From a virus, in IMG/VR virus record IMGVR_UViG_3300035703_000042, positions 31,021 to 95,020 of that record: a stretch of DNA of 64,000 nucleotides; one strand, written 5' to 3'. The position numbers and the translations under genes were made by a program. The notes under the pieces were generated by a model that saw only the letters and a list, made by a program, of their open reading frames with translations, was not told where the DNA came from and ran no database searches. This document shows, in pieces, positions 947-36,363 of this stretch (its first letter is position 1; each line of letters starts with the position of its first letter).

Positions 947-1849
947 ATGGCCGAACGAATACTACTCGATCGACTCGAGTTCTATATTACCAACGTCTGT
1001 AACCTTACCTGTAACGGTTGTAATCGTTACAACAATTACCATTTCAAGGGGTGGACGGCCTGGGACGAATGGGCCGAGGATCTTGAGCGTTGGTCAAAGT
1101 ACATCGACATCCGACATCCGGTGATCCTGGGCGGCGAACCCTTGATGAATCGTGATATCGTGAAATGGGTCAAAGGCTTGCGTCGACTATGGCCCGATCA
1201 TTCAGGAGTGCAGATCCAAAGCAATGGTACCAGGATCGATCGTGTGCGTGGTTTGTACGATGTGCTGGATCCCAAAGAAGGCAACTGGATCGGTATCAGC
1301 ATACACAACCCTGATGACAAAGAAGAGATTTTTTCGCGCATACGCAACTTCCTCACACATCCCATACGCGAGACTGCAGATAAAAATCATCCCATTGGCA
1401 GCGATTTCCAGTTCTACGATGCCAATAACATGTATGTGCATGCTTGGATGAGTAACAAGTTTGTACAGAGCAATATCATCGAGCGTGATGATGGTACGTT
1501 TACAGTATACAATCACGACAACCCCGAACGCGCACATGAGATCTGTACTTTCCGCAGATTCAAGAACTATCACTGGATCAACGGACGCATTTACAAGTGC
1601 GGACCTGCAGCTCTCATGCCCGAATTTGATCGCCAGCATCATTTTGACATATCCGAAGAGGATCGTGCTATCATGCACGGATATCGAGGACTGAGTGTGG
1701 ACGAGTTTGACGAGCGAGGGCACGACTTCCTTGCCCACATCGATGACATGATTCCGCAATGCAAATTTTGCCCCCAGGACTACGATTACAAACCCATTAC
1801 ATTTTCAGACCGCAAAAAGAGTTGGCGGATCAGCACAGAAATATTATAG
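947..1849 (+). CDS. Radical SAM protein
   Basis: CNLTCNGC motif, GGEPL, SNG, C-terminal Cys cluster. Confidence 0.9.
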   Translation: MAERILLDRLEFYITNVCNLTCNGCNRYNNYHFKGWTAWDEWAEDLERWSKYIDIRHPVILGGEPLMNRDIVKWVKGLRRLWPDHSGVQIQSNGTRIDRVRGLYDVLDPKEGNWIGISIHNPDDKEEIFSRIRNFLTHPIRETADKNHPIGSDFQFYDANNMYVHAWMSNKFVQSNIIERDDGTFTVYNHDNPERAHEICTFRRFKNYHWINGRIYKCGPAALMPEFDRQHHFDISEEDRAIMHGYRGLSVDEFDERGHDFLAHIDDMIPQCKFCPQDYDYKPITFSDRKKSWRISTEIL

Positions 1850-1888
1850 TTAAACTCGCATGCTGGAGCACCAAGCATAAGTACTTGT

Positions 1889-2491
1889 ATGAAAAACAAG
1901 TATGGAATCAAAAAACAGTGCCTACATTGCGGAGAAGAATTTATAACGAAACTTAGGCTAGTTGACTATTGTTCTCAGCCCTGTAAGAACCCTAACAACA
2001 GACCAGGTCATATTCCCTGGAACAAAGGTAAGACATTAACTCAAGAACAAAAAGCAAAACAAAATACAACAGGGTTAACAAAAGGTCGGGGATGGAACAA
2101 AGGACTCCCTAATGAACTTGCTCGAAAAAGATTTTTAGAGAATAATCCAAATAAAGACGGACGAGTTAACAATCTAAGACCTAAAAATTATATAGATGAT
2201 GAGTTTTCTGCTTATAAGAGAGAATGTCGTAAAGCCACTTATAGAAGTGTTTATCAGATGAAGAAGGAAGGACTGGTGCCTGAGAATACTGGTAAAAGAA
2301 AAAACCAGTACCAGTTAGATCACATAATTCCGTTTAGACAAGGTTATGAACTTGGGATAGATCCCCGACTCATTGGGAGCAGACAAAATCTGCGTTACAT
2401 CTTAGGCGAAGAAAATAGATCGAAGTGGGATCGTTTTCAGCCCGACGATGTTTTAAAATCAGTTATAGGAGACAATCATGGCTTACAGTAA
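1889..2491 (+). mobile_element. Free-standing HNH homing endonuclease
   Basis: N-terminal CxxC...CSxxC, repeated PWNKG/GWNKG DNA-binding motifs, C-terminal LDHIIP...NL...N; AT-richer than flanks; overlaps the iscU start. Confidence 0.8.
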
Positions 2492-2874
2492 GGCCGTTAT
2501 TGATCATTATGAGAACCCGCGTAATGTGGGTTCGTTTGACAAAGGAGATACGCACGTTGGGACCGGTATGGTTGGCGCCCCAGCGTGCGGATGACGGAGA
2601 CGTCATGAAACTACAGATCAAGGTCAATGAAGATGGCATCATCGAAGACGCGAGGTTTAAAACTTACGGCTGCGGATCAGCCATTGCCTCCAGCAGTCTT
2701 GTCACCGAGTGGGTCAAAGGCAAGACACTCGACGAGGCAGCAACTATCAAGAACACAGCGATCGCCCAAGAGCTCGCTCTTCCGCCTGTTAAAATCCATT
2801 GCTCAATACTGGCTGAAGATGCCATCAAAGCAGCCATAGAAGACTACAGGAACAAACATGGCCACGCCAATTGA
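2478..2874 (+). CDS. iscU: Fe-S scaffold IscU, split by a 7-nt insert at 2592-2598 (needs a bypass/frameshift, otherwise a pseudogene)
   Basis: SD AGGAGA then MAYSKAVIDHYENPRNVG...GAPACG followed by TGA; the +1 frame continues GDVMKLQIKV...FKTYGCGSAIASSS...LPPVKIHCSILAEDA. Confidence 0.93.
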
Positions 2875-3073
2875 AACAGTGATATTGTGGGCATTGATCA
2901 TCAGCGGTGAACCGCGTGTGCAAGAAGTCTATCGCACCGAAGAGCCGTGTGTGCGTGCTGCGAGATCGCATCGTGCTCAAGGAACTTTCGCTTACTGCAT
3001 GCCCACTAATCAGTTCACGGTTGAAACTAGCACGCATCAACTTCGCAGCCTGGGAGTATTGTTGAATGATTGA
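2858..3073 (+). CDS. Hypothetical protein
   Basis: 71-aa ORF between iscU and iscA with overlapping ends. Confidence 0.5.
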   Translation: MATPIETVILWALIISGEPRVQEVYRTEEPCVRAARSHRAQGTFAYCMPTNQFTVETSTHQLRSLGVLLND

Positions 3074-3395
3074 GATCACCGACACAGCCGCAGAGCGAGT
3101 ACAGCAGGCCATCCAACGACGTGGTCGAGGCGTAGGTATCAAGATTGGCGTAAGAACCACCGGGTGTTCGGGACTGGCCTATACCTTGGAATTTGTTGAT
3201 ACGGCACCAGACACTCAACAAGGCATAGAACACTACGACATCAAAGGTGTTGGCGTTTTTGTCAACACCGAGCACTGTGTGTATTTGCAAGGCATGACCA
3301 TCGACTATCAGCGCCGGGGTCTCAACGAAGGCTTCGAATTCATTAACCCCAACGAAAAAGACCGCTGCGGTTGCGGCGAAAGTTTCCGAGTTTGA
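3066..3395 (+). CDS. iscA: A-type Fe-S carrier IscA/HesB
   Basis: TTGCSGLAY and C-terminal CGCGESF motifs. Confidence 0.92.
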   Translation: MIEITDTAAERVQQAIQRRGRGVGIKIGVRTTGCSGLAYTLEFVDTAPDTQQGIEHYDIKGVGVFVNTEHCVYLQGMTIDYQRRGLNEGFEFINPNEKDRCGCGESFRV

Positions 3396-4108
3396 TAAAT
3401 CAACGTTTCGATTATGCCCCGCTGTCACGCGAAACTGTGAACGGCCGTAGGCTTTATGCCGCCCCCAATGGTGATCGTCTTCCGTCAGTGACTACCATCC
3501 TTGATGCTACCAAGCCCGCAGAAAAGCGAGCAGCATTGCAGGCCTGGCGTGATCGAGTGGGTCATGAACAAGCACAGCAGATCACCACCGAAGCAGCAAA
3601 TCGTGGCACCCGGATGCACACCTATCTCGAGCACTATGTGCGCAGCGGCGAGCTCAAGGAGCGTGGTAGCAATCCATTTTCCTGGCCCAGTCATGCCATG
3701 GCAGCCACAGTGATCGATCAAGGTCTGGGCCAGGTTGATGAATTCTGGGGAGTGGAAGTTCCCTTGTATTTCCCCGGCATCTATGCCGGTACCACCGACT
3801 GTGTGGGCATACATCAAGGTCAGGCTTCCATTATGGACTTCAAGCAAACCAACCGACCCAAGCGAGAAGAGTGGATCGATGACTACAAACTACAGCTCTG
3901 CGCCTATGCTGAAGCACACAACGAAGTGTACGGAACATGCATCCAAAAAGGTGTGGTCTTGATGTGTGTAAAGCCCACAGTCGATCCAGAAACACAGACT
4001 GTGACTACACCGCCGCAGTATCAGGAATTCGTGATCGAGGGTCAAGAATTTGAACATTGGCGAGATCAATGGTGGCGTAGGGTCGAACAGTACTATCTAA
4101 CCTGCTAA
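3392..4108 (+). CDS. PD-(D/E)xK family exonuclease
   Basis: LPSVTTIL, GTRMH, E..L, AGTTD, IMDFK, QLCAY motifs; probable TTG start overlapping the iscA stop. Confidence 0.8.
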   Translation: MINQRFDYAPLSRETVNGRRLYAAPNGDRLPSVTTILDATKPAEKRAALQAWRDRVGHEQAQQITTEAANRGTRMHTYLEHYVRSGELKERGSNPFSWPSHAMAATVIDQGLGQVDEFWGVEVPLYFPGIYAGTTDCVGIHQGQASIMDFKQTNRPKREEWIDDYKLQLCAYAEAHNEVYGTCIQKGVVLMCVKPTVDPETQTVTTPPQYQEFVIEGQEFEHWRDQWWRRVEQYYLTC

Positions 4109-30985: not shown

Positions 30986-31306
30986 ATGCACCATCTTCAA
31001 AAATTTCATGACATGATTGACAGTGTATTCCGACCAACCCTAGAATGGATCCGCAATGACTACCGCGTTTACCCTTTTCGTTTCTGTGTCGAAGTGGTGG
31101 CTTGGGCTCTCAGCATTGGTTGTAGCCTCGTCATGGCTATTACAGTACCTGAGCCCCCTTTACTCGCTCTATATCCTGCTTGGATACTCGGTTGCGGCCT
31201 TTATGCTTGGGCTGCTTGGGACCGCGGCAGTTTTGGCATGCTTGCCAATTATCTGCTGCTGGTCGCTATTGACACCACAGGACTGATTAGGTTGTTGATT
31301 TCTTAG
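30986..31306 (+). CDS. Small multi-pass membrane protein
   Basis: Three hydrophobic segments. Confidence 0.6.
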   Translation: MHHLQKFHDMIDSVFRPTLEWIRNDYRVYPFRFCVEVVAWALSIGCSLVMAITVPEPPLLALYPAWILGCGLYAWAAWDRGSFGMLANYLLLVAIDTTGLIRLLIS

Positions 31307-31663: not shown

Positions 31664-32791
31664 ATGTCAGGACTTGAAATGAGGATTTTGCCCGATAACT
31701 TTTGCAGATTGCCCTGGAACGGACTCGATGTTGGTCCACAAGGTGGATTCAAACCTTGCTGCAAATATCGCGAAGATATCGCGCAGGACCTCGACGGTTA
31801 TCTCCACAGTGAAAAACTAGATCTCCTGCGGCAGGAATTCCTGTCCGGTCAGCACCCTGCTGGATGTCAACGCTGTTGGGACGACGAAGCTGCGGGTATT
31901 CCCAGCAAACGCCAATTAGACAATGCCTATACTTTTGGCGGACAAGAAGTGGTGTTGGATGGTGTACGCACACTGAGCCTTCCGTTTGGAAACACCTGTA
32001 ATCTGGCCTGTGTTACCTGCGGAAGCCACAGCAGCAGTCGTTGGGTCACCGACGAACGGAAACTGCCCAATCGATTTGGACGCCAGATCTTTGGTCACAG
32101 CCAATTTTATCGAGATCCCGGGTTCCTGGATCGCATCGCTGGCCTCTGTGACGATGTCATACACATCGACATACCCGGCGGCGAACCCTTTTTCTCGGAT
32201 CGAGATCTACATCTGGGCTTCTTGCAACAGTTGAAGAATCCACACAATATCAAACTGCACTACACCACCAATGGCACCGTGTATCCTGATCCCGAGTTCT
32301 GGGCAGTCTGGAGTCGTTTCCGTGCCACGGATATACAGGTCAGCATAGATGGAGTGGGTGATCGTTTCGAATATATCAGGCATCCGGCCCAATGGCACGA
32401 AGTTGAGAAAAATCTTTTCCGATATCGAGATCAGGGCACTACACAGATATCCATCAGCCACACAGTGAGTTGGCTCAATGTCATGTACCTCGACGAGTTC
32501 GTTGGATGGTGCCAAACAAACTCCTTGCCTGAGCCCTATCTTGGTCCGGTAAGCCGTCCGGCCTATCTTGACGCTAGATGCTTGCCGTCAGCAGCCAAAT
32601 CACGGATAGCCCATCATCTCCGATCGAGTTCGCATGCCATGGTGCGGCAGTTTGCCGACTATCTCCTCCAAGACCTCGATCGGGACCTCTGGACACAGGC
32701 ACAGGACTGGGTGGCGGAACTGGATCGATTACGCGATCGGGACTGGCGCCAGACTTTTCCCGAACTCGAGCAGGTCATCCAAAATCCATAA
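31664..32791 (+). CDS. Radical SAM protein with N-terminal SPASM/Twitch-like Cys motifs
   Basis: FCRLPW..PCC..C..CW, CNLACVTC, GGEP, TNG, SIDG. Confidence 0.88.
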   Translation: MSGLEMRILPDNFCRLPWNGLDVGPQGGFKPCCKYREDIAQDLDGYLHSEKLDLLRQEFLSGQHPAGCQRCWDDEAAGIPSKRQLDNAYTFGGQEVVLDGVRTLSLPFGNTCNLACVTCGSHSSSRWVTDERKLPNRFGRQIFGHSQFYRDPGFLDRIAGLCDDVIHIDIPGGEPFFSDRDLHLGFLQQLKNPHNIKLHYTTNGTVYPDPEFWAVWSRFRATDIQVSIDGVGDRFEYIRHPAQWHEVEKNLFRYRDQGTTQISISHTVSWLNVMYLDEFVGWCQTNSLPEPYLGPVSRPAYLDARCLPSAAKSRIAHHLRSSSHAMVRQFADYLLQDLDRDLWTQAQDWVAELDRLRDRDWRQTFPELEQVIQNP

Positions 32792-34965: not shown

Positions 34966-36363
34966 ATGAGCGATAACAAATATCTGTTTGAAATAAAGCA
35001 AGAACTCGGTCGTGGCGGACCCGGGCTTTGTTTGGCCAAGTGGTACGAAGTCAGCATGCATCTTGAAAGTGGGCACAACCACAGTTGTGTACATCCGCGC
35101 ACGCATCGTGTGTCCGAAGACGAAGTACGTGCCAACTATCATGCCTTGCACAACAGCCAGTACAAGAAATCAGTGCGTGCCGAAATGCTGGCTGGTGGCC
35201 GCCCACCGGAATGCAATTATTGCTGGAACATGGAAGATGTTGGAGACCCTGATATCATCCCCGATCGCGTGTATTTTAGTTCGGTACATCTGGATGAAAA
35301 ACGCAGGATCGGCAAAGATGCAGTACAAGAAATCATCGATCTTGGACCGGATCATGATTTTTTTCCCAGGAGCGTAGAAGTCAGTTTTTCCACCACCTGC
35401 AACTTCAAATGCAGTTATTGCGGTCCGGAGGTCAGTAGTCGCTGGTTCAAAGAGATCGAAAAACACGGACCTTATCCCATCATACTCACTGGCACTAGTA
35501 TCAATCAGATGCAGCGCCAGCAAAAAATACCCATCCCTGACCGAGAGTACAATCCTTACATTGAAGCTTTCTGGAAATGGTTGCCAGAAGCCTATCCGCA
35601 CATAAAGATCCTACGGGTCACCGGTGGAGAGCCTTTGCTGATCCATCATACCTTTCGACTCATGGACTGGGTCAAGGCCAATCCTAGACCTGATCTCGAA
35701 CTTGGCATCAACTCCAATCTTGGAGTACCCGACAGCATCTTTGATCGGTTTGTGGCAGCCATGCGCGAGATATCCGAGCGTAAAAGCGTGGGCAAGCTGG
35801 TGGTATGGACCAGCTGCGAAGCCACAGGAGATCAGTGCGACTATATCCGTTATGGCATGAATTATCAGAAATGGTTGGTAAATCTACGCCGGGTACTAGA
35901 CGAGATTCCCGACTGTTCGATTCGCATCATGACCACCTATTCGGCTCTCAGCGTGACCAGTTACTTGGATTTTTGTCGAGACATCTATGAGCTACGCCGA
36001 CAGTACGGTGATCGTATAATTTTTGATACGCACACCTATCTCCATTATCCCAAGTACCTGGCCATCGACATACTCACACCCGATTTCCGGGAGTACTTCC
36101 AGAAAGAGTGCGATTTCATCGCAGAAATGAAGTCGCAGGGTCTGGCCACTGATCACGAAGTTTTCCAAAGTCAGCGACAGCTTTCCTACTTTGATGCTAG
36201 AATAAAGAATCCTCTAGAACAACTTTCGTTGTTGAGGAAAGACTTTTTTACCTTTGTGGATGAATACGATTACCGTCGTGGTACCAACTTTTTAGAAACT
36301 TTCCCTGAGTTTCGGGATTTTTATGAACTTTGCAAAAACACCATTTGGTGGGACGAGGAATAG
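34966..36363 (+). CDS. Radical SAM protein
   Basis: CNFKCSYC, TGGEP, NSN, N-terminal Cys motifs. Confidence 0.88.
   Translation: MSDNKYLFEIKQELGRGGPGLCLAKWYEVSMHLESGHNHSCVHPRTHRVSEDEVRANYHALHNSQYKKSVRAEMLAGGRPPECNYCWNMEDVGDPDIIPDRVYFSSVHLDEKRRIGKDAVQEIIDLGPDHDFFPRSVEVSFSTTCNFKCSYCGPEVSSRWFKEIEKHGPYPIILTGTSINQMQRQQKIPIPDREYNPYIEAFWKWLPEAYPHIKILRVTGGEPLLIHHTFRLMDWVKANPRPDLELGINSNLGVPDSIFDRFVAAMREISERKSVGKLVVWTSCEATGDQCDYIRYGMNYQKWLVNLRRVLDEIPDCSIRIMTTYSALSVTSYLDFCRDIYELRRQYGDRIIFDTHTYLHYPKYLAIDILTPDFREYFQKECDFIAEMKSQGLATDHEVFQSQRQLSYFDARIKNPLEQLSLLRKDFFTFVDEYDYRRGTNFLETFPEFRDFYELCKNTIWWDEE

Follow-up and report, generated by a model that had tools for sequence, protein, structure and literature searches.

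A candidate homing cassette joining an HNH-type nuclease gene to a short insert in the iscU gene of an uncultured phage

How can a phage keep an iron-sulfur (Fe-S) assembly gene that is broken by a stop codon and a change of frame within a conserved motif, and why does this lesion lie just downstream of a nuclease gene? These questions are raised by a 64,000-nucleotide (nt) stretch of DNA, in the following called the window (positions 31,021 to 95,020 of the IMG/VR virus record IMGVR_UViG_3300035703_000042), where a free-standing open reading frame (ORF) predicted to encode an HNH-type nuclease overlaps the start of an iscU gene bearing a 7-nt insert. From comparison with related loci, it appears probable, and this with good confidence, that the segment from 1850 to about 2620 is a homing cassette whose insert would block self-cleavage and would be bypassed by a Gly-to-Gly hop of the ribosome.

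Layout of the interrupted iscU gene and its upstream nuclease gene

The upstream neighbour of the cassette, the leader, the nuclease ORF, iscU and the signals within them are all on the + strand. The nuclease ORF (1889-2491, 200 amino acids) ends with the stop codon TAA at 2489-2491 and overlaps by 14 nt with iscU, which starts with ATG at 2478, and the Shine-Dalgarno sequence of iscU (AGGAG, 2467-2471) is located within the 3' end of the ORF. The G+C content amounts to 0.35-0.41 over 1801-2500 versus about 0.50 in both flanks. Hence, the AT-rich HNH gene reported in an earlier note on this DNA, with its 14-nt overlap and the enclosed Shine-Dalgarno sequence, is confirmed in the sequence, and so is the 7-nt insert that the same note had placed in the APACGD codons about 100 nt from the HNH gene. 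Codons 1-38 of iscU (2478-2591), assigned to the cassette, end with the Gly codon GGA at 2589-2591, here termed the take-off codon, which is followed by TGA (2592-2594) and C (2595). A further GGA at 2596-2598, the landing codon, then opens the +1 frame running to the stop codon at 2872-2874, so that the insert, beginning about 100 nt past the end of the HNH ORF, consists of the four bases to be skipped (2592-2595) plus either GGA. Both pieces of iscU match the Pfam profile NifU_N, the first one over profile positions 1-35 (4.3e-10) and the second one over 35-125 (1.1e-37). The two matches meet at profile position 35, so that a seamless IscU results when the two Gly codons are read as one, and this joined protein retains the APACGD, GCGS and HC motifs with the ligand residues Cys37, Asp39, Cys63 and Cys106. 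The same insert is found in a contig from another study (X2, 830 nt, spanning 1783-2612 with 5 mismatches and no gap) and in one from a third study (X3, 213 nt, spanning 2481-2687 gap-free), and equivalent inserts adjoining homologues of the HNH ORF are present in more than 100 IMG/VR contigs. The insert is thus real and not an assembly error.

A profile search of 1.8 billion representatives revealed 595 relatives of the protein encoded by the upstream ORF. In an alignment of 84 relatives, the sole invariant columns are D144 and H145 (codons 2318-2323), N167 (2387-2389) and N176 (2414-2416), corresponding to the catalytic signature of HNH enzymes, in which a His, usually as part of a D/N-H pair, acts as general base and is accompanied by two further residues, an Asn with a structural role and an Asn or His that binds the metal. 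The N-terminal part shows a CxxC...CxxxC arrangement and two WNKG motifs resembling NUMOD3, a DNA-binding module of homing endonucleases, and 14 close homologues have these elements in common together with NPN, DHIIP and N...N-R-x-K-W. Among the 84 relatives, Pfam matches were obtained to NUMOD3 (19), HNH_4 (5) and HNH (3). In the AlphaFold2 model, residues 100-200 are predicted at a local confidence score (pLDDT) of about 90, and the best, albeit weak, fold matches were obtained to 4h9d, the Gme HNH nicking endonuclease (Z 4.8, root-mean-square deviation 3.7, 69 aligned residues), and to 5h0o, the HNH endonuclease of phage GVE2 (Z 4.0). The Foldseek list consists mostly of HNH domains, every one at an E-value above 0.5. 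Based on the invariant D-H...N...N of the relatives, their Pfam matches and the fold matches, ORF 1889-2491 is probably an HNH-type nuclease gene. In the PHROGs database, the protein matches a family of unknown function and nothing else, and in blastn and tblastn comparisons with named phages the C-terminal nuclease half gave weak matches to hypothetical proteins of T4-like Acinetobacter phages.

Linkage, mobility and insertion site of the block

Related loci were gathered from IMG/VR with the iscU protein (the 80 top-scoring of over 598 hits), with the HNH protein and with the HNH profile as well as by DNA patterns for 7-, 8- and 9-nt inserts (57, 35 and 25 contigs, respectively), resulting in a dereplicated set of 161 distinct iscU regions. 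Regions without insert lack the HNH gene in 67 cases and possess it in full in 12, with neither remnants of the gene nor genes cut by the contig end, and those with an insert of 4, 6, 7, 8 or 9 nt comprise 18 without HNH gene, 56 with the full gene, 7 with a remnant and one where it is cut by the contig end. The HNH homologues all immediately precede iscU, except in two contigs where they lie within the gene. The sequence GAPACGDV is encoded by 66 of the 67 alleles having neither HNH gene nor insert and, once the two Gly codons are merged, by all 82 insert alleles. In none of the 67 HNH-bearing alleles, however, is the canonical GAPACGDV uninterrupted, as these show either a 4-9 nt insert or an amino-acid change instead, the latter in the 12 HNH alleles without insert, which encode GAPSCGDV (A36S, seven alleles), GAPACGDL (V40L, three) or GSPACGDV (A35S, two). 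When considering the 150 alleles scorable for both traits, the HNH gene is combined with a modified site 67 times and never with a canonical one, while the alleles without HNH gene have a canonical site in 65 and a modified one in 18 cases. With the distal 3' part of iscU standing in for the phage backbone, the tree contains 11 independent contrasts between presence and absence of the HNH gene; site modification changes in the same direction in about six of these and in the opposite one in none (sign test, p about 0.03). The comparison of occurrences across related phages proposed in the earlier note, now carried out, hence favours a cassette. Judging from these sequences, linkage is strong but not absolute and connects the nuclease with any disruption of this one site. 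The coupling of HNH gene and insert envisaged in the note holds tightly across alleles, although some nuclease genes are accompanied by a substitution and some inserts have no HNH gene beside them; in the latter 18 alleles, the gene was lost or never present.

Tree tests were run on the first data set of 95 alleles, 20 of them with insert. In the tree of distal iscU, insert alleles are scattered with 13 state changes and their grouping in one clade is rejected (approximately unbiased (AU) test, p 0.0007), whereas for the segment from the start codon to the insert one clade of insert alleles is not rejected (p-AU 0.90). Mosaic structures can also be seen directly, as near-identical cassettes comprising leader, HNH gene, iscU codons 1-38 and insert are embedded in backbones of 65-82% identity. 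Loci L085 and L087, for example, are 94-100% identical across a block (about -625 to +141) that begins some 35 nt ahead of the HNH start and ends 23 nt beyond the insert, whereas identity falls to 60-76% over the remainder of iscU and to less than 70% upstream. In five independent mosaic pairs, the first mismatch appears 14, 23, 23, 23 and 32 nt past the landing codon. Correspondingly, by analogy with these relatives and from the contig break of X2 at 2612, the right end of the mobile block in the window, a boundary without strand, can be placed approximately at 2610-2630. In the X2 run, the cassette is 99.4% identical to the window and the segment 2649-3100 about 94%, with assembly breaks at 1783-1840 and 2612-2649. 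An empty site is represented by L032, where a homologue 77% identical to the upstream neighbour of the window cassette, a radical S-adenosylmethionine (SAM) protein gene outside of the block (947-1849, Pfam Radical_SAM 9e-13), is followed by 12 nt and then by an uninterrupted iscU. Degraded loci (L004 and others) retain the leader and the last 33-76 HNH codons after internal deletions, and alleles having only the insert possess ordinary promoter regions upstream. Comparative sequence thus indicates that HNH gene, iscU 5' end and insert are transferred as one block between diverged phages, the same site being occupied in diverged genomes and the flanks being co-converted, as is characteristic of mobile homing genes. 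The mobile endonuclease-plus-insert cassette that the earlier note had put forward as a candidate is accordingly borne out by the mosaic pairs and, as described below, by truncated iscU copies. As a side observation, contigs from the other metagenomes (X2/X3) diverge from the window at 1843, into a short Shine-Dalgarno-like stretch, and also depart at 2595, preceded there by the uninterrupted ...GCGCCCGCCTG, which suggests that alleles lacking HNH gene and insert coexist with the cassette in the same samples.

The point of entry into iscU is documented by two loci, L271 (1371-2200) and L272. There, a first iscU copy reaches from the start codon to the codon for Cys37 and ends in TAA. Leader and HNH gene of the cassette come next, and codons 1-38 then appear again in a differing version, with a 4-nt insert separating them from the remainder of iscU. 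Truncated first iscU starts (MAYS..., 4-37 codons) are present in 10 of 68 loci with a full HNH gene, representing at least eight lineages, and sit 52-130 nt before the HNH start. From these truncated copies upstream, the APAC|G codons of iscU can be identified as the site of cassette entry. In the window, the leader (1850-1888) contains GGAGCACC at 1865-1872 and a CATAAGTA box at 1876-1883. An inverted repeat also has its 5' arm in this leader. The leader element GGNGCNCC, in the window likewise found at 1865-1872, repeats exactly the Gly-Ala-Pro codons that immediately precede the site. Of 67 leaders, 44 have it at a distance of 20-27 nt upstream of the HNH ATG, while 0.17 would be expected from shuffles. 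On this basis, the leader copy is read as a relic of the left half of the target. Considering the remnants, a right boundary that falls 14-32 nt beyond the landing codon, and the altered site in every carrier, the DNA encoding G-A-P-A-C-G-D-V would be the target of the nuclease. With a site so near to the 5' end of the gene, the element can replace the whole iscU 5' end and no protein is split.

The leader layout is conserved as ...ACTCNCA...GGNGCNCC(A/T)AG...(C/G)ATAAATACTTGT-ATG. Moreover, an 8-bp inverted repeat pairs 1881-1888 with 1896-1903, placing the HNH start codon in the loop. Across the loci it is 90.8% paired versus 21-52% when slid, but only one pair covaries, and RNAalifold predicted no structure for the HNH start region. 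This repeat could either mask the start codon or represent a box resembling a promoter. A late promoter of the T4 type was considered as well, but TATAAATA is found once in the window versus 0.56 expected and is therefore not enriched, so that the ATAAATA box of the leader is not assignable as phage late promoter.

Proposed decoding of the interrupted gene and competing explanations

Among the 82 insert alleles, lengths of 4, 6, 7, 8 and 9 nt are represented, with net frame changes of +1, +2 and 0. All but one follow the layout Gly codon-stop-N0-3-Gly codon, for example, GGA TGA C GGA (window), GGT TAA C GGA, GGC TGA G GGC, GGA TGA CA GGT, GGT TAG TTA GGT and GGT TGA GGA, and all three stop codons occur. 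The exception (81 of 82 conform) is GGT A GGC (L271 and L272), where the rare Arg codon AGG and not a stop enters the A site. On the HNH tree, length classes are interleaved, as a 7-nt clade is sister to an 8-nt one and a 6-nt allele lies inside the 8-nt clade, and consequently insert length must have changed repeatedly with the layout kept. The sequences fit one mechanism for all lengths, in which the peptidyl-tRNA-Gly would leave the first Gly codon, with the stop codon in the A site, and re-pair at the next. Joined in this way, none of the 82 proteins has an internal stop. The ratio of nonsynonymous to synonymous polymorphism (pN/pS) amounts to 0.25 in the 5' part and 0.19 in the 3' part of insert alleles, compared to 0.19 and 0.16, respectively, in uninterrupted ones, indicating that neither half of iscU has escaped purifying selection. 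Of the 82 alleles, only 46 have a landing codon that is matched to the take-off codon or read by the same tRNA class. TGA is followed by C in 33 of 40 TGA alleles. From termination studies in E. coli, TGA-C is known as the weakest termination context, but since the alleles are related to each other this count is merely suggestive. Reassignment of TAG was considered for the contigs with 9-nt inserts and discarded, as reading TAG as a sense codon gives no longer ORFs. A pattern scan of genome contigs revealed no iscU among the matches listed, which are chance matches in GC-rich genomes, 102 of 120 reading TGG.

Directly 5' of the take-off codon and touching it, the window RNA is predicted to fold into a hairpin (2551-2589; stem 2551-2561/2579-2589; minimum free energy -31 kcal/mol, z -3.99), the last pair of which includes the first G of the take-off GGA. 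Of its 10 core pairs, which extend up to the Cys37 codon, 9.7-9.9 are formed in insert alleles versus 5.7-5.9 in alleles without insert, irrespective of whether the HNH gene is present. Likewise, the mean minimum free energy is -23 kcal/mol with insert versus -12 and -9 kcal/mol without. Three pairs covary in insert alleles, one of them being AT in 51, CG in 26 and TA in 5 and another one TA in 55, CG in 12, TG in 8 and GC in 5 alleles. As insert-free alleles form fewer of the pairs with or without HNH gene, the hairpin follows the insert and not the nuclease. An insert-specific and covarying hairpin is what a recoding signal should look like. Both elements expected for programmed bypassing can hence be found, a conserved stimulatory signal specific to the alleles in need of recoding as well as a slow A-site codon combined with a cognate or near-cognate landing codon. 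In addition, a second hairpin can be drawn at 2591-2606 (AUGACG-GAGA-CGUCAU), with a 6-bp stem and a GNRA-type loop, spanning stop and landing codons. The window and alleles with GAC-GTC-ATG form it strongly, but its conservation does not extend to other variants, and it was rejected as a general signal.

Taken together, these findings are consistent with the following scenario. The cassette would consist of the leader, the HNH gene, iscU codons 1-38 with their own ribosome-binding site and the 7-nt insert. The nuclease would recognise and break the highly conserved G-A-P-A-C-G-D-V DNA in the iscU gene of competing phages, and repair off the cassette-bearing genome would copy the whole block. 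The insert, or A36S, V40L or A35S in some relatives, would disrupt the site and render the carrier immune. As the insert would destroy IscU, it would be decoded by a short programmed bypass. The ribosome would pause with TGA-C, a poor terminator, in its A site and the peptidyl-tRNA-Gly on GGA 2589-2591. The 3' arm of the hairpin would be inside the ribosome while the take-off codon is in the P site, and refolding of the 11-bp hairpin (2551-2589) behind the ribosome might then pull the mRNA forward by about the gap length. The tRNA would re-pair with GGA 2596-2598 and decoding would restart at GAC (Asp39), resulting in wild-type IscU. Activity and cleavage site of the nuclease, protection by the insert and the hop itself are thus proposed from sequence comparison.

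Several points weigh against this scenario. The window HNH protein gave no meaningful Pfam match (E up to 10), PDB sequence-profile searches with the protein or the alignment were likewise without meaningful match, and the fold matches are weak, with Z below 5. Twelve HNH alleles have no insert and 18 insert alleles no HNH gene. Sampling was partly pattern-driven, as the scans demanded GGNGAYGT after the insert, although the HNH-anchored set, not selected on GGNGAYGT, has the same motif. The apparent single origin of the 5' segment could be inflated if selection for the hairpin made the 5' parts converge; the near-identical mosaic pairs, however, are independent of the tree test. In 36 of 82 alleles, the third base of take-off and landing codons crosses the GGY/GGR boundary, so that a matched-codon rule is not strict and landing may rely on two G:C pairs or on a permissive tRNA-Gly. 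Finally, stop-hops in synthetic E. coli constructs have been described as low-level events (PMC5009743; PMC10732093), and the yield of the hop in iscU may be low as well.

Alternatively, the cassette might be mobile as described but IscU split, with translation stopping at TGA and restarting at ATG 2605 (Met41), using GGAG at 2596-2599 as Shine-Dalgarno sequence. The resulting 38-residue peptide and C-terminal fragment would have to assemble, or the latter to work alone. The geometry of the window would allow for this, as GGAG is found 5 nt before an in-frame ATG that follows 10 nt after the stop; ATG is present at this codon in 66 of 82 insert alleles, and reinitiation suits any insert length. 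Nevertheless, split translation is unlikely, considering that 10 of 82 alleles offer no ATG, GTG or TTG within 20 codons of the landing codon, that the Gly-Asp-Val codons are kept in all alleles (in 14 synonymous combinations, HNH-anchored sample included), that the second Gly codon is always there, and that the covarying 5' hairpin has no role in reinitiation. Moreover, both products would lack Asp39, an established ligand of the IscU cluster. Recoding could also be class-specific, with a +1 frameshift for 7-nt inserts, a +2/-1 shift for 8-nt ones and stop readthrough for 6 and 9 nt. In prfB, the weak terminator TGA-C in CTT-TGA-C promotes a +1 shift, and GGA-TGA-C of the window, where the frame change is +1 as well, resembles this shifty stop. 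However, three or four unrelated mechanisms would be required within one closely interleaved lineage, tRNA-Gly is unable to re-pair at +1 (GAT), two to three residues would be added between the ligands Cys37 and Asp39 (the +1 shift giving Cys-Gly-Asp-Gly-Asp), and the constant Gly codon after the gap would be left unexplained, which makes this explanation most improbable.

Abandoning recoding altogether, a purely selfish cassette might have left a scar that killed a dispensable gene. That iscU is auxiliary and the host owns a copy would agree with such inactivation. No RNA data set is listed for this stretch, which counts neither for nor against it. On the other hand, the sole lesion in 82 distinct alleles is at this one codon, and in the cassette lineage the 5' part has diverged with pN/pS still at 0.25, the 3' value being 0.19, similar to intact alleles. 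Additionally, a compensated hairpin is kept in interrupted alleles only, and the Gly-stop-Gly layout is never lost despite varying insert length, rendering loss of function decidedly unlikely. Finally, the derivation of the window from a metagenome contig could point to a sequencing or assembly artefact or to a chance neighbourhood of an unrelated ORF, but the same 7 nt in gap-free contigs of two other studies and the equivalents in more than 100 IMG/VR contigs refute this, leaving it with practically no weight. The bypassed homing cassette hence accounts best for the locus.

Relation to known systems and genomic context

To our knowledge, T4 gene 60/MobA was for decades essentially the sole known mobile element combining a homing endonuclease with a translational bypass. 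The iscU cassette would represent a second, unrelated and much simpler system of this kind. In the T4 system, the 50-nt insert of gene 60 prevents nicking by MobA (Bonocora et al., 2011, via Manning & Atkins, bioRxiv 10.1101/2022.08.31.505936), the endonuclease decays or is lost in T4 relatives while the bypass insert stays (bioRxiv 10.1101/2022.08.31.505936), and mRNA pairing of a 5' stem-loop behind the ribosome has been proposed to drive forward bypass (bioRxiv 10.1101/2024.12.09.627546; Manning & Atkins). In both cases, one mobile element unites an HNH nuclease gene with a non-coding insert that interrupts a conserved gene. The element brings along its own version of the target sequence near the nick site (a presumed one in iscU), with iscU codons 1-38 and their ribosome-binding site acting as "homR", and only some tens of bases separate the insert from the 3' end of the element. 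Furthermore, a Gly take-off codon is followed by a stop, a 5' stem-loop would help, and the nuclease decays with the insert being retained. Unlike the 50-nt gap of gene 60, however, the iscU gaps amount to 4-9 nt and involve all three frames, the target is iscU and not a topoisomerase, and the gene is not split in two proteins. The iscU-linked nuclease is without detectable homology to MobA and has its HNH motif at the C-terminus, and some carriers use substitutions. Kinship with MobA was also tested directly and rejected, as hhalign comparison of the profile with two T4 MobA fragments resulted in a probability of 0.1-0.6%. The likeness to MobA and gene 60 drawn in the earlier note is therefore upheld for the way the cassette would work and not for the descent of its nuclease.

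Short hops over stop codons have been described for synthetic E. coli constructs (Weiss et al., 1987, reviewed in PMC5009743), and according to the same review from 2016 no natural in-frame stop-hop was known (PMC5009743). As in these constructs, the peptidyl-tRNA would leave a codon preceding a stop and re-pair with a synonymous codon several bases further on, and a slow A-site codon would act as trigger. In contrast to the low-efficiency laboratory hops, the iscU inserts form a natural and conserved family with a dedicated hairpin. It is reasonably likely that the more than 100 contigs represent a natural stop-hop family (4-9 nt) which is driven by a refolding hairpin, arose independently of T4 gene 60 and provides immunity for another lineage of homing endonucleases. 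Short inserts in a natural phage gene are also known from the terminase of Streptomyces phage Hau3, in which inserts of about 10 nt are bypassed at rare UUA codons, and the junction peptide has been shown by mass spectrometry in E. coli (PMC10732093). Bypass in Hau3 differs from the iscU cassette also in being regulatory, in depending on a rare sense codon, in having no homing endonuclease and in using another gene and other signals.

Free-standing Seg and Mob homing endonucleases of T4 accomplish intronless homing (PMC2988022). The iscU cassette resembles these in having an intergenic nuclease gene and co-converted flanking markers, and cutting of the neighbouring conserved gene where the nuclease is absent can be presumed for iscU. 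Immunity of Seg and Mob elements is due to point polymorphisms, whereas that of the iscU cassette would be based on a frame-breaking insert in need of recoding. Inteins and group I introns with homing endonucleases likewise invade conserved coding sites and rescue gene function, but by protein or RNA splicing, while rescue of iscU would take place at translation. If the iscU inserts are indeed such a stop-hop family, recoding would be a general third solution, beside introns and inteins, for selfish nucleases invading essential coding sequence. In the literature, no description of iscU together with bypass, recoding, frameshift or an HNH system was found. Natural variants in gap length, stop codon, Gly match and hairpin provide a ready mutational series for take-off, drive and landing. 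As gene callers will label such iscU genes as broken, viral Fe-S auxiliary genes are under-counted. A different interruption was observed in L285:2090-3493 (also in L286 and L288-L290), where iscU is one ORF of 468 codons with the NifU_N match split in two by a Hint-like module directly after Cys63 (GC|LTSNAPV), the upstream HNH gene and GAPSCGDV being present. This module probably represents an intein that occupies another conserved site of iscU. Alternative routes to immunity (insert plus recoding, motif substitution, intein elsewhere) would be found in one gene, making the cost-benefit logic of selfish elements in auxiliary genes of phages testable.

The source of the window is a 95-kb IMG/VR virus record, 27% complete, the content of which (ribonucleotide reductase, ligase and several radical SAM genes) indicates a fragment of a large uncultured phage. 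No tRNA genes were found in the window, the nuclease gene occurs only once in the 95-kb record, and blastn and tblastn against named phage genomes revealed no close relative of the locus. Downstream of iscU, an IscA-like gene (3066-3395) is followed by a gene for a PD-(D/E)XK exonuclease (3371-4108, phrog_298, 7e-53), which is syntenic in many relatives, 3' of the Fe-S genes. The location of a recombination exonuclease near a homing site may simply reflect conserved gene order. With at least three radical SAM genes in the window (947-1849, 31664-32791 and 34966-36363), the phage seems to supply Fe-S assembly genes of its own in support of its Fe-S enzymes. Finally, a 71-codon ORF without Pfam or PHROG match (2858-3073) overlaps both iscU and the IscA-like gene and has a weak homologue at the same position in L002, L005 and L008.

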